DNA from: an uncultured Candidatus Saccharibacteria bacterium
GTDB taxonomy: Bacteria; Patescibacteriota; Minisyncoccia; SW-4-49-11
Length of the DNA: 37,819 nt
Direction: 5' to 3'
NCBI GenBank assembly: GCA_964585065.1
Contig: CAZPCB010000004.1
Span: 1 to 37,819 of the forward strand
Part shown: positions 10,357 through 30,482 of the stretch, one piece after another
How the letters are laid out: each line of letters begins with the position of its first letter
Position numbering within the stretch: the stretch's first letter is position 1
Program-made: the position numbers and the translations under genes
Notes under the pieces: generated by a model
What the model was told of the DNA's origin: nothing
What the model saw: only the letters and a program-made list of their open reading frames with translations
Database searches by the model: none

Positions 10357-11121
10357 ATGGATGAACAACTCTTAGCCAAACTTCGCTCTCTTGGATTCTC
10401 AGACAAAGAATCTAAAGTTTATGTCGCTTCTCTTAAATTAGGATCTGCTCCTATTCAAAAAATTGCTAAATTAGCAACAGTAAATAGAGCTACTACCTAT
10501 GTATTAGTAGAAGGGTTCATGAAAAAAGGACTTATGAGTTCTTATACTCAAGGGAAAAAGAGATTATTTACTCCGGAATCTCCAGAAACCTTATCTGTAT
10601 TGATTCGACAAGATAAAGCTGAAGTTCAGGTAAAAGAGGATACTATAAATGAAATATTACCTACACTTGCAAGTATTTATGATACTACACAAGGTGGAGT
10701 ACGACCACAAGTACGATTTTATGAAGGAAAATTAGGTCTTAATAGTGTTCGTGAAGAAATGCTTAAGACTAAAGAAAAAGAAATTTTCAGTATTTTTGAT
10801 CTTGATGCAACTGAGGGAATTTTTACTTCTGAGGAAAGCGCTAATTTTTATAAAAAGCGATTAACGAAAAAAGTAAATGTACATGCAATTTATTCTTCAT
10901 CAAAGGGAGATATTTTGAAGGATTCAAAATTAGAAAAGGTATTATATCGCTATATCGATAAGTCTAAATATAATTCTCCTATTGATATATCGGTATTTGA
11001 TGACAATGTAGCTATTACTTCATTCAAAGAGCCTATAATGTCAGTTATTATACAAAATGAGCCAATTGCTGAAGCTATAAAGCAAATATTAACTTTGGTT
11101 GAAAAATCAGATACGAAATAA
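10357..11121 (+). CDS. TrmB-family helix-turn-helix transcriptional regulator
   Basis: LGFSDKESKVYVASLKLG...IAKLATVNRATTYVLVEGFMKKGL, PQVRFYEGKLG and C-terminal PLD-like ISVFDDNVAITS. Confidence 0.85.
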   Translation: MDEQLLAKLRSLGFSDKESKVYVASLKLGSAPIQKIAKLATVNRATTYVLVEGFMKKGLMSSYTQGKKRLFTPESPETLSVLIRQDKAEVQVKEDTINEILPTLASIYDTTQGGVRPQVRFYEGKLGLNSVREEMLKTKEKEIFSIFDLDATEGIFTSEESANFYKKRLTKKVNVHAIYSSSKGDILKDSKLEKVLYRYIDKSKYNSPIDISVFDDNVAITSFKEPIMSVIIQNEPIAEAIKQILTLVEKSDTK

Positions 11122-11124
11122 TAA

Positions 11125-11240
11125 ATTGAAGAGAGGAAGCCGCTTTGCGACTTCCTCTACGGAGAGTATTCAGTTGGAGTGTGATTGTCAGATGACACCC
11201 ACTTTATCCTCCGCTAGCAAAGCTAGCATAATGGAACACC
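11125..11240 (-). ncRNA. Candidate stand-alone structured small RNA, possibly carrying a 13-codon micro-ORF at 11229-11188 (MLALLAEDKVGVI)
   Basis: GC-richer island with its own promoter upstream, three hairpins, and a final 12-bp hairpin that pairs fully only on the minus strand (U-G wobble, versus C/A mismatch on plus). Family not recognised. Confidence 0.5.
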
Positions 11241-11243
11241 TCT

Positions 11244-11272
11244 ATATTATCATGAATATAGGTAATTGTCAA
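11244..11272 (-). promoter_or_regulatory. Sigma70 promoter driving the candidate small RNA
   Basis: Minus strand TTGACA (11272-11267) - 17 nt - TAATAT (11249-11244) with extended TG. Confidence 0.7.
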
Positions 11273-11280
11273 GATTATAC

Positions 11281-11319
11281 AACTAAAAACCCATTCAAAC
11301 ATTGAATGGGTTTTTAGTT
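11281..11319 (-). terminator. Intrinsic terminator after rplT
   Basis: Perfect 18-bp stem aactaaaaacccattcaa / ttgaatgggtttttagtt with A/T tails on both sides. Confidence 0.85.
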
Positions 11320-11337
11320 TAGGTCAAATATATAAGA

Positions 11338-11679
11338 TTATTTGGTATTCTCTACAATATGAGCAAATACTTCTGGTTTATGTTCAGCTAAATAAGCTAA
11401 GCTTTTACGATCGAGTTCAATATTAGCTTTATTTAAATTATTAATAAGTCGGCTATATTGTACGCCTAGATTTCGGCTGGCAGCATTAATTTTAGCTTGC
11501 CATAATACTCTCTTATCTCGCTTTTTATTACGTCGATCTCGATATGCATAAGTCCAAGCATGTAATAGGGCTTCTTTTGCAGCTCGAAAATTAGTTTTTC
11601 TTCGCCATTGAAAACCCTTGGCATGTTGCAAGAGATTCTTTCTTCTTTTACTAGCGGTAACTCCTCGTTTAATTCTCAT
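11338..11679 (-). CDS. rplT: 50S ribosomal protein L20
   Basis: RIKRGVTA...AKGF...YAYRDRRNKKRDKRVLWQAKINAA...IELDRKSLA. Confidence 0.97.
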   Translation of the reverse strand: MRIKRGVTASKRRKNLLQHAKGFQWRRKTNFRAAKEALLHAWTYAYRDRRNKKRDKRVLWQAKINAASRNLGVQYSRLINNLNKANIELDRKSLAYLAEHKPEVFAHIVENTK

Positions 11680-12490: not shown

Positions 12491-12882
12491 GGGTGGAGAT
12501 GATGGGAATTGAACCCATGTATAGCCCAGCATCCGTATACAATTACTTAGAGAAATAGGAAATTGCGGGTCTTTTTTATGATATATTCTTAATTAATTTC
12601 CAAAGATAGAATACATCAGTGCCACAAAAAAGTTTTGGCAAATGGTCTTTGTGGATGACTATTTCCCTATCAACATGTATATAACACCAATATTCTTGTA
12701 TGTTGACTAAAAGAATATGATGGCAGTCGCGAAATTACTTAGGCAACTGCATACCCAAATCCGTAAGAGGATCGGGCTGCAAAAGGTTTTGCATTTGGGT
12801 TTGTCCGTCTTTGGTCTCGTGACAGACATACGAGTTCTCATTGTATATAGATGTGAATGAACTAGCAAAGCGAAACATCCCC
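12491..12882 (-). ncRNA. ssrA: tmRNA (one-piece), tag reading frame 12792-12739 = AKPFAARSSYGFGYAVA*
   Basis: Acceptor GGGGAUG/CAUCUCC with G3-U70 and discriminator A, T-arm AUGGG-UUCAAUU-CCCAU, helix 2 (UAGUUCA/UGGGCUA; CAUCU/GGAUG; UAUACAAU/AUUGUAUA), PK1 (CUCGU/ACGAG; UGUCUGUC/GACGGACA), H5 GCAGUUGC/GCGACUGC flanking the tag stop. Directly downstream of smpB. Confidence 0.95.
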
Positions 12883-12889
12883 GATTGAG

Positions 12890-13333
12890 TTATTTGATTC
12901 GCAATATTCTTTGAATAGATCGTTGTTCTTCTCTATCTCGAATACTATGGCGCTTATCAATCTTTTTCTTGCCTTTTGCAAGGACAATTTCAATCTTAAT
13001 AAGTCCACGTATTAAGTATAGCTTAATTGGGATAATTGTCAAGCCTGAAGCTGATTTTTTGGCAATTAATGAATCGATTTCAGAACGCTTCAAAAGTATT
13101 TTTCGAGGGCGCTCGGTATCAAAATGGGTATCAGCATGATTTTGATAATGGGGGATATGACAATGAATCAAAAATAATTCATTATTTTCAATAGTGATAT
13201 AAGAACCCTTGAGGCTGGCATGACTTAATTTCACTGACTTCACCTCATTTCCAAATAACTGAAGACCAGCCTGATAGGTATCAAGAATAGTATAATCAAA
13301 AGTAGCACGAATATTTTGGGCAAGAGGCTTCAT
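12890..13333 (-). CDS. smpB: SsrA-binding protein SmpB
   Basis: NIRATFDY...AGLQLFGNEVKSVK...RPRKILL...GLTIIPIKLY...AKGKKKIDKR. Confidence 0.97.
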   Translation of the reverse strand: MKPLAQNIRATFDYTILDTYQAGLQLFGNEVKSVKLSHASLKGSYITIENNELFLIHCHIPHYQNHADTHFDTERPRKILLKRSEIDSLIAKKSASGLTIIPIKLYLIRGLIKIEIVLAKGKKKIDKRHSIRDREEQRSIQRILRIK

Positions 13334-29938: not shown

Positions 29939-30421
29939 ATGAAAAGACAATATAAATCAGGATTTACATTAGTAGAAATCGTTCTAGTATTTGTATTAGT
30001 AGGAATTCTTATTGCAATAACCACACCTCTTGTAGTAGAGACAGTACAAAGAGCTGATTTAACCTCTGCACATGAATCTTTGTATAATGCCTTAACTAGA
30101 GCACAAAAATTATCACAAAGCCAAACTAATGGACAAGTATGGGGTGTTTGTCTTGATAATACCAATCATCGTTATATAATTGTTGCAGGAACCTGTAGCT
30201 CAAATGATAGGAATATTATATATGATGAAATCATAACTATTGCTCCTACTATCAGTATAGTAGGAAATGGTGGGAATAATATAGACTTTTCTCCTGTATC
30301 GGGATATAGCGATCCCAATGGTATTACTTTAACAAATGGGAGATTTAGTAAATTAATAAATGTAGACGGACAATTAATAGATAAAGACCCTATATCATTA
30401 GTCCCTCCACCAGCATTGTAA
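29939..30421 (+). CDS. Type IV minor pilin (FimU/GspH-like)
   Basis: KSG|FTLVEIVLVFVLVGILIAITTP. Start set to the ATG at 29939, just after the pilC stop. Confidence 0.85.
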   Translation: MKRQYKSGFTLVEIVLVFVLVGILIAITTPLVVETVQRADLTSAHESLYNALTRAQKLSQSQTNGQVWGVCLDNTNHRYIIVAGTCSSNDRNIIYDEIITIAPTISIVGNGGNNIDFSPVSGYSDPNGITLTNGRFSKLINVDGQLIDKDPISLVPPPAL

Positions 30422-30466
30422 ACTAACACCTACATAGATAAAGACCCTATATCATTAGTCCCTCCA
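30377..30466 (+). repeat. 33-bp perfect direct repeat (30377-30409 and 30434-30466)
   Basis: atagataaagaccctatatcattagtccctcca occurs twice, 57 bp apart, straddling the pilin stop codon. Confidence 0.95.
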
Positions 30467-30482
30467 GCAGGCTAATATAAAT

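Follow-up and report, generated by a model that had tools for sequence, protein, structure and literature searches.

In Firmicutes, leaderless communication peptides (LCPs) such as SIP are encoded by a 24-bp open reading frame (ORF) that yields the mature 8-residue signal, which is sensed by RopB, the regulator encoded by the adjacent gene (PMC10518010). In mccA, a 7-codon ORF with a strong Shine-Dalgarno (SD) sequence is followed right away by a terminator, and ribosome binding triggers termination and gives a highly stable, ribosome-bound short RNA (PMC4231749). ORFs of 2 to 8 codons can be translated reiteratively without release of the ribosome (PMC6495379), and in Flavobacteria, whose genomes are otherwise SD-blind, the SD-bearing gene rpsU encodes bS21 and regulates itself (PMC7797042, PMC9976891, PMC13000453). 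Here we describe a short transcription unit in a 37,819-nt stretch of bacterial DNA (contig CAZPCB010000004.1, analysed in full and called the window). The unit lies on the minus strand at 11272-11116, consists of a promoter, a 5′ hairpin, a structured body and a terminator, and runs toward the 3′ end of a gene for a TrmB-like regulator. Its conserved core is a strong SD followed by a 4-codon mini-ORF, which may rank among the smallest conserved genes known. From comparison with relatives and distant loci, we lean toward the reading that this ultrasmall ORF is translated and that the TrmB-like regulator is functionally linked to its product or to the act of translation.

A preliminary description of the region had placed here an orphan unit with its own promoter and hairpins, and had used a U-G pair in the last hairpin to assign it to the minus strand. 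All of these elements are present on that strand, and the transcription unit after rplT is confirmed as real. Its parts and its two flanking features are as follows.

11244 to 11272, minus strand: promoter, with the −35 element TTGACA at 11272-11267, a 17-nt spacer and the extended −10 element TGaTAATAT at 11252-11244 (TG at 11252-11251, TAATAT at 11249-11244)
11213 to 11227, minus strand: 5′ hairpin P1, GCUAGC-UUU-GCUAGC, immediately upstream of the SD
11208 to 11212, minus strand: SD GGAGG, 5 nt (AUAAA) ahead of the GUG start
11188 to 11202, minus strand: mini-ORF GUG GGU GUC AUC UGA, read as fMet-Gly-Val-Ile-stop, the conserved core of the unit
11188 to 11229, minus strand: 13-codon ORF MLALLAEDKVGVI* of the preliminary description, an in-frame upstream extension of the mini-ORF
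11159 to 11186, minus strand: C-rich spacer, with ACACUCC at 11182-11176 and UACUCUCCGU at 11168-11159, predicted to pair with the SD and start codon
11116 to 11158, minus strand: intrinsic terminator AGAGGAAGUCGC-AAA-GCGGCUUCCUCU, with a 12-bp stem including one G-U pair at 11158-11132 and a U-rich tail at 11131-11116
10357 to 11121, plus strand: gene of the TrmB-like regulator (254 amino acids; winged helix-turn-helix (HTH), long helix, C-terminal alpha/beta domain), convergent to the unit
11286 to 11316, no strand assigned: rplT terminator hairpin with A and U runs on either side, the upstream boundary of the unit and context only

The promoter scored 10 of 12 matches plus the TG in a promoter scan. 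The AT-rich region contains such sites no more often than chance predicts (16 against 16 expected), and the promoter is believed because it is conserved in relatives, not because of its score. The likely start site is G 11237, within a TGT that is conserved 5 to 7 nt past the −10 element in nearly all relatives, and P1 may stabilise the 5′ end so formed. The terminator was the best terminator-like match of the scan (12 pairs), and the complement of the TrmB-like gene's stop codon (11119-11121) falls within its tail. When the plus strand is folded, a mismatch stands where the minus strand has the G-U pair, and no U tail follows. Because the G-U pair and the U tail are found on the minus strand only, the strand assignment is sound. 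On the minus strand across 10357-11121 there were zero ORFs of at least 40 amino acids, and the feature that follows the unit is the convergent regulator gene. The 126-nt stretch folded with −42.6 kcal/mol (z = −5.0; 0 of 200 shuffles equally good), and the plus strand was nearly as stable (z = −4.65). In the predicted body, GCGGAGGAUA (11214-11205) pairs with UACUCUCCGU (11168-11159), GGAGGAU being paired with AUACUCUCC, and the small hairpin UGUC-AUCU-GACA (11197-11186) is enclosed between them. The predicted unpaired probability was 0.10 for the SD and 0.02 for the GUG.

Close relatives were collected through an L20 search of genome contigs (loci L001-L009), through exact-protein look-ups of TrmB-like homologues (L081-L089), and from the metagenome scan described below (L096 and L097). 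All 18 loci of the window's family carried, between rplT and the regulator gene, a unit of 85 to 120 nt with a terminator and a near-consensus promoter, TTGACA-16/17-TAtAaT in 18 of 18. In the 17 close relatives, whose TrmB-like proteins are 75-100% identical, and in L089, the promoter, start, 2 to 3 sense codons, stop and terminator occupied one and the same slot. Mean column identity between promoter and terminator was 44%. In alignment A2, just three internal columns reached 90% conservation or more: T38 and G39, which form the UG in the start codon, and T49, the U that opens the stop codon. The frame is AUG-N3-N3-UAA/UGA in fourteen sequences; in the window clade, GUG or AUG is followed by three codons and UGA, and L002 has AUG at the position of the window's GUG, so that the two start codons interchange. 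A 5′ hairpin lay at the matching place in the relatives with another sequence (UACUC/GAGUA, ACCC/GGGU, GCCC/GGGC), and a terminator hairpin, also differing in sequence, abutted the regulator's stop codon in every one.

The micro-ORF of the preliminary description was the longer frame, MLALLAEDKVGVI* at 11229-11188, with GAGGUG (11242-11237) 7 nt ahead of its AUG and named as the sole SD-like motif before a start. Frame and motif are both there. The description cautioned that the start site may cut into GAGGUG, and the motif lies at or upstream of the likely start G 11237. What had been overlooked is the stronger GGAGG at 11212-11208, 5 nt before GUG 11202. As a product, the 13-residue peptide could appeal to an open frame in three sequences (the window, L001 and L002), all of which agree at 9 of 13 residues; the agreement stems from 5′ hairpin DNA that is identical there. 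An AUG in frame was found only in these three, and in 9 of the 15 other relatives an in-frame stop 6 to 33 nt upstream of the conserved start closes the frame. The AUG of the long frame would also lie about 8 nt from the predicted 5′ end, with no SD within the transcript, and the conserved SD inside this ORF serves the nested start. We regard the 13-residue peptide as a most improbable product. What survives of the earlier proposal is a translatable micro-ORF with an SD, namely the mini-OR­F nested at the end of that frame.

The mini-ORF unit was also found far from rplT. TrmB-like homologues of 49-68% identity have alaS, rpmC or unknown genes as neighbours, and at those loci a promoter, AAGGAGG, AUG, 2 to 4 codons, a stop and a terminator converge on the regulator's 3′ end, encoding for example MGVI (L089, AUG GGU GUU AUU UAA), MGGA, MVD, MSELS and MAQ. 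A metagenome scan with the regulator profile, which showed at least 537 TrmB-like loci, yielded, among the matches listed, 80 more loci at 34-54% identity (L096-L175), and the 66 unique distant loci with enough downstream sequence were used for an enrichment count. The filter asked for at least 5 nt of AAGGAGGU, a spacer of 4 to 11 nt, ATG or GTG, 1 to 7 sense codons and a stop, at most 400 nt from the regulator's stop codon. It was passed at least once by 45 of the 66 loci, and the 60 matches compare with 5.0 expected from the rest of the loci (1.20 vs 0.10 per kb; Poisson p = 7.5e-43). The distant SD took the form AAGGAGG(U) with a spacer of 4 to 9 nt, and 49 of the 60 units were convergent with the regulator, the other 11 lying on its strand. 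Several of the loci that failed the filter have variants of the unit, among them a weaker SD ahead of MGTK, MGDAD or MGW and, in the slot itself, frames extended to 13, 24 or 42 codons.

Clustering of neighbouring ORFs recovered, besides the TrmB-like protein, no family in more than 7 of 70 loci, and ComEC and the MBL-fold protein accompanied the regulator solely in the window's family. Since no other family recurs next to the regulator, the conserved entity in these sequences is the pair of TrmB-like gene and mini-ORF unit, with rplT an incidental neighbour. The earlier framing of the unit as lying downstream of rplT does not extend to the distant units, which follow the TrmB-like gene beside alaS, rpmC or unknown genes. 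We dropped the idea that the unit works with rplT/infC, or with ComEC and the MBL-fold protein, since those neighbours are restricted to the window's family.

Some loci showed elaborations of the slot. Tandem unit copies occur in L150 (2290-2500), L154, L160 (940-1150), L135 and L133, encoding MGW, MGGW and others, and some lie on the regulator strand. In L131, L147, L142, L168 and L174, SD-led ORFs of 13 to 42 codons take the place of the mini-ORF behind the TrmB-like gene; those of L131 and L147 have M[YF]WGGK..KKW.QK in common (24 codons), and L170 reads MWRGGK.

The SD is exceptional in these genomes. In the window, even a weak 4-mer SD match was present at only 4 of 33 long ORFs, and in the distant loci L096-L175 a strong SD stood before 16 of 188 ORFs, with starts taken as the first ATG. 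The upstream regions of ordinary genes here are A/U-rich and rarely bear an SD. In 47 distinct distant ORFs, the share of G was 63% at the first codon position, 55% at the second and 16% at the third (chi-square p = 4e-18). No phase of G was seen in the 12 nt past the stop (p = 0.81). Glycine was residue 2 in 32 of 51 distant units (4% expected; binomial p = 3e-31), encoded there by GGC, GGU or GGA and never by GGG. In these 51 units it accounted for 46% of the residues after Met, and the last residue was most often Gly or Trp. Peptide lengths ranged from 2 to 8 residues, chiefly 3 to 4. MGVI, MGAG (with three synonymous differences), MGGW, MGW and MGL recurred across lineages with synonymous codons. 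Pairwise difference rates by codon position were uninformative, as the ORFs are too diverged. Because the SD is exceptional, G is phased, Gly stands at residue 2, peptides recur through synonymous codons and start codons interchange, we take these frames to be read as codons, and the data favour translation with selection on the encoded residues or their tRNAs over a G-rich RNA motif.

This codon signal is what a purely non-coding structured RNA, acting by base pairing or protein binding with the short ORF incidental to a hairpin, would leave unaccounted for. Such an RNA would suit the strong fold of the window unit (z = −5.0) and the small hairpins over the ORF, which vary in sequence and keep their pairing (UGUC/GACA, GGGU/ACCC, GAUC/GAUC, GAGC/GCUC). 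Pairing is likewise kept in the two tandem units of L160, where compensatory changes link the upstream segment and the ORF, UACCAACC/GGUUGGUA against UACCAGCC/GGCUGGUA. It would also suit the motif CAAYUNAAUCCCC after the stop, which is read in different frames in L003 and L004, and the conserved leader of about 90 nt in one sub-family. Yet start and stop are the most conserved internal positions, codon periodicity is limited to the ORF, the SD spacing is canonical and ORF length changes in whole codons. Most units have a lineage-specific 5′ hairpin and a lineage-specific terminator, and no consensus structure beyond these two was common to the family; no Rfam family matched either. We consider a non-coding RNA very improbable. 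The compensatory changes and the masking of the SD described below indicate that structural and coding constraints coexist.

Our preferred explanation is then a self-contained gene, which would comprise a sigma-70 promoter, a 5′ hairpin, an SD, a 4-codon ORF and a terminator abutting the regulator's stop codon, and which, together with the TrmB-like regulator, forms a two-gene module in most of the Parcubacteria loci examined. Ribosomes would translate the mini-ORF, and with a strong SD and so short a frame they would probably do so repeatedly without leaving the RNA, the product being a formyl-Met-Gly-X(-X) peptide. More speculatively, this peptide, or its making, may be the signal that the adjacent TrmBL2-fold regulator senses or controls, in the manner of LCP pairs, and masking of the SD by C-rich segments could gate translation. 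The sequence comparisons establish that the module is conserved, that its SD is exceptional, that the ORF is short (2 to 8 residues) and that Gly is enriched in phase with the codons; the peptide as ligand is the least secure part of the explanation.

The regulator itself matched the Pfam TrmB HTH (E = 4.8e-9), and the AlphaFold model of the 254-residue protein was confident (predicted local distance difference test, pLDDT, 91.6). Its top structural matches in the PDB were TrmBL2 (5bqt/5bpd; E = 7e-14, full length) and TrmB (3qph/2f5t). TrmBL2 is an archaeal chromatin protein and regulator. The C-terminal half of the model resembles the TrmB sugar-binding domain and a PLD-like fold, and the modelled regulator is thus predicted to have a TrmB-type effector-like C-terminal domain. 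Searches of PADLOC, NCBIfam and PDB sequences with the regulator returned nothing beyond generic HTH and TrmBL1/2 similarity, with no defence system or specific family. In L098 and three further loci, a second TrmB-like paralogue adjoins the first.

Among described systems, the LCP/RopB pairs come close in that an SD-led ultrasmall ORF adjoins the gene of a cytosolic DNA-binding regulator, here in 45 of 66 distant and 18 of 18 family loci. LCPs are translated straight into the mature peptide with no leader or processing, and in both systems the peptide sequences differ between lineages. The LCP receptor, however, is an Rgg/RRNPP protein with TPR repeats, whereas the regulator here has a TrmBL2/TrmB fold and, in Pfam, the TrmB HTH only. 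LCPs have 8 to 10 residues, for the most part aliphatic or aromatic, and are hydrophobic, whereas the peptides here would have 2 to 8 residues and be Gly-rich, and LCP genes are mostly divergent from the receptor gene, in contrast to the mostly convergent, tail-to-tail units. In LCP pairs the peptide is secreted, taken up again and bound by the receptor; for the peptides here, signalling is putative. Firmicutes use the SD generally and the genomes here do not. With mccA the unit shares a strong SD, a few-codon ORF followed by an intrinsic terminator, and a peptide poorly conserved in sequence and conserved in length. Unlike mccA, it lacks the defining C-terminal Asn needed for adenylation by MccB: the window peptide ends in Ile, and Asn was last in 1 of 51 distant and 1 of 17 close units. 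There is no neighbouring mccB (an E1-like adenylyltransferase), export or immunity gene, the products encoded around the window unit being ComEC, the MBL-fold protein, the TrmB-like protein, L20, L35 and IF3. No biosynthetic genes follow on the same strand, and the ORF is shorter, at 3 to 5 codons. By analogy, the unit resembles in its working an LCP or mccA-type ultrasmall-ORF gene most closely and belongs to neither. It is set apart from mccA because Asn and MccB are absent, from LCP/RopB because receptor fold, peptide length and composition differ, and from attenuators, taken up below, because there is no cargo gene.

Several observations weigh against this explanation. In the close family, the peptides differ freely (MIS, MSA, MGL, MCE, MTH and others), Gly is residue 2 in just 3 of 17 relatives, and six members have no clear SD. 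Such free variation among close relatives is hard to fit with a specific peptide-receptor pair, unless specificities diverge fast. A peptide of 3 to 4 residues carries no export signal. The recurrence of identical peptides is suggestive of coding, and the biased composition could produce it by chance. Under strict rules, promoters were found in just 20 and terminators in 22 of 54 distant units. Expression data bear on the same question. In a small freshwater metatranscriptome that holds this strain, depth was about 2500 for transfer-messenger RNA (tmRNA), by a wide margin the commonest transcript from this stretch, 487 for infC, 9.5 for rpmI-rplT and 3 to 4 for the TrmB-like gene. The depth of the unit there was 0, with no contig over 10940-11325, in a type of library from which short RNAs are often lost, and the rpmI-rplT contig ends at 11326. 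On these depths the unit RNA does not rank as abundant. An aquifer metatranscriptome contains a 242-nt contig of depth 4.4, as low as that of the regulator and without strand information, which covers L109 at 2131-2372 and so includes the regulator's 3′ end, the terminator and most of the unit. It shows that the junction is transcribed, and either a long 3′ untranslated region of the regulator mRNA or read-through from the unit would fit it. Since this contig crosses the shared hairpin, termination there must be incomplete in at least one direction.

The same features allow an RNA directed at the ribosome or its anti-SD tail, in which the SD, start and near-immediate stop would capture 30S or 70S particles, as a sponge or as a sensor of free anti-SD, with the peptide as a by-product. 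In this form the anti-SD decoy of the preliminary description stays in play as a rival. An SD so exceptional in SD-poor genomes invites this reading, as do ORF lengths within the 2- to 8-codon range of re-initiation without leaving (PMC6495379) and the additional GGAGG or GGAGGA inside the ORFs of L101, L113, L114 and L150. A single strong-SD gene that senses the state of the ribosome has a precedent in Bacteroidia (PMC9976891, PMC13000453). The likeness to Flavobacterial rpsU is that of a rare strong SD in an SD-poor genome, which implies a special relationship with the anti-SD; the difference is that the ORF here has 3 to 5 codons (4 in the window) and does not encode a ribosomal protein that masks the anti-SD.

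Masking of the SD points the same way. Many distant units have an upstream CCUCC(U) that pairs with the SD, and across 52 units the median unpaired probability of the SD was 0.29, vs 0.46 with shuffled flanks (Wilcoxon p = 9e-5). For the window taken by itself, masking by the downstream C-rich segments was not distinguishable from that with shuffled flanks. Against a ribosome-directed RNA, G is phased to codon positions 1 and 2 and not 3, which speaks for selection on Gly codons and not for a G-rich RNA, and GGG is never the second codon. A sponge needs abundance, and the RNA was not abundant in the freshwater metatranscriptome. The six members of the window's family without a clear SD are no easier to place here, and the linkage to the TrmB-like gene is given no reason. 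We judge this alternative unlikely.

Masking takes a particular form in one sub-family (L106, L156, L163, L164 and L171), where a common leader of about 90 nt (GCCC...GGGCAAnAAGAGAAGrUUAaCGAC...) precedes a strong hairpin, CCUCCUG-loop-CAGGAGG, that buries the SD of a 3- to 4-codon ORF. The leader could be a sensor domain that gates translation in these loci.

The orientation of the units bears on a further alternative, in which the mini-ORF is a Gly-sensing leader-peptide attenuator, or the unit acts on the TrmB-like gene as a cis-antisense RNA or through convergent transcription that starts at its strong promoter and disturbs transcription of the regulator. In the attenuator variant, a ribosome stalling on the Gly-rich mini-ORF, for instance when glycyl-tRNA is scarce, would set the choice between termination and antisense read-through into the regulator. 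An SD, a tiny ORF and a terminator are laid out likewise in attenuators with 3-codon upstream ORFs and in mccA (PMC9226507, PMC4231749), and the richness in Gly codons recalls amino-acid-sensing leaders. The terminator tail overlaps the regulator's stop codon, convergence is seen in 49 of 60 units, and the RNA contig in L109 spans the junction. On the regulator strand the shared hairpin lacks a U tail, so that regulator mRNA may enter the unit.

In phage lambda, oop is a short RNA with its own promoter and terminator that converges toward the 3′ end of a regulator gene and overlaps the cII coding region in antisense. The unit is similarly a short, independently promoted and terminated RNA convergent on the 3′ end of a regulator gene. 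It differs in that the overlap is confined to the stop codon and the shared hairpin, in that the orientation is not universal and in that an SD and ORF are conserved. The 11 of 60 units that lie on the regulator strand, some of them in tandem, do not fit an antisense role, and L090 and L092 have an extra bidirectional terminator between the unit and the regulator gene. The distance from stop codon to terminator, 7 to more than 100 nt, is too variable for a steric mechanism, and pairing of the unit body with the region of the regulator's translation start was no better than for shuffles (mean z = −0.6). The short-upstream-ORF attenuators of the vmlR type (PMC9226507) share the SD-led few-codon ORF upstream of an intrinsic terminator, and there the state of the ribosome can set the fate of the RNA. 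They lie, however, in the 5′ leader of a same-strand cargo gene, whereas here only the 3′ end of a convergent gene follows, and neither the minimum-energy nor the ensemble fold of the window contained an antiterminator or other element competing with the terminator stem. We hold attenuation or antisense interference to be improbable, somewhat more so than capture of ribosomes. Of the earlier proposal of an antisense regulator of the TrmB-like gene, the connection to the convergent gene is retained and antisense as the general explanation is not.

To return to a translated gene tied to the regulator, its strongest form would be a free-standing gene of 3 to 5 codons that is the obligate partner of a TrmBL2-fold regulator across a class of the Candidate Phyla Radiation (CPR), with the peptide or the engagement of ribosomes as the signal. 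This form we put forward tentatively, as possible and rather doubtful. If true, it would be the smallest conserved peptide gene described and would add a new type of regulator-effector pair to organisms in which very few regulatory circuits are known. Tiny genomes are typical of Parcubacteria and other CPR bacteria, in which, to our knowledge, few regulators can be recognised and hardly any regulatory RNA or signal has been characterised. In about 60 loci, a single regulator family was seen coupled to an unannotated unit with an SD and a 3- to 5-codon frame at its conserved core, in genomes that hardly use the SD. If the unit is translated, the size limit of a conserved free-standing gene would drop below the 7 to 8 codons of mccA and LCPs, and an uncultivated phylum would gain a concrete regulatory circuit open to test, along with a probe of how SD-poor bacteria use the anti-SD tail. 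Such mini-ORFs would go entirely unseen by gene callers and under ORF-length cut-offs, among them the 6-residue floor applied when communication peptides are searched for. A literature search for TrmB with Parcubacteria found no paper, and the literature pairing Patescibacteria with Shine-Dalgarno, judged by titles and abstracts, appears unrelated.

The preliminary description had recognised no SRP, RNase P, 6S or riboswitch motif, and scans of the window, 8 close relatives and 20 distant loci placed the unit in no Rfam family. A gathering-mode scan of the window returned 2 tRNAs and the tmRNA only, and E-value scans (11050-11400, the 8 close relatives and the 20 distant loci) gave only chance-level hairpin matches on the unit. 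Signal recognition particle RNA, 6S RNA and a T-loop-like motif were dropped, with no supporting motifs or matches. A fluoride (crcB) riboswitch, suggested by GGAGUUC...CUAAUGA...CCUAC in L003 and L004, was likewise set aside, as no Rfam match appeared at E up to 10. A kink-turn or C/D-box reading of AUGAU...AAUGAU was abandoned because the motif is present in only 4 sequences. A second ORF starting from the UAAUG stop-start overlap in the window's family was rejected as well, its peptides being unconserved and the conserved nucleotides after the stop being read in different frames.

The host lineage is Candidatus Paceibacteria (Parcubacteria, CPR), from lake water, and locus L008 (contig JBIIRM010000007.1) has the window sequence over the region. 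On the plus strand the gene order is ComEC, MBL-fold protein and TrmB-like regulator, facing infC-rpmI-rplT on the minus strand, with tmRNA and smpB farther upstream. The tmRNA (12491-12882, minus strand) scored 52.3 bits in Rfam, barely over the threshold of 47, and the 147-residue ORF beside it (12890-13333, minus strand) was taken as smpB from position, without a search.

Further patterns of an SD and a mini-ORF in the window all lay inside coding sequence, apart from a 37-nt direct repeat. The two copies (30377-30413 and 30434-30470) are 97% identical and 57 nt apart, between two convergent pilin-like genes with an N-terminal methylation motif. Each copy reads on the minus strand GGAGG, 5 nt and AUG AUA UAG, a pattern like a 2-codon minigene; one copy is the 3′ end of the ORF 29939-30421 and may be merely a duplicated gene end. 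In L003 (2900-3190) and L096, a GC-richer insertion of about 270 nt lies between the rplT terminator and the promoter of the unit, on the convergent strand. With terminal inverted repeats TTTTGTCTCCC...GGGAGACAAAA and hairpins rich in CCUCC/GGAGG, it looks like a miniature mobile element.

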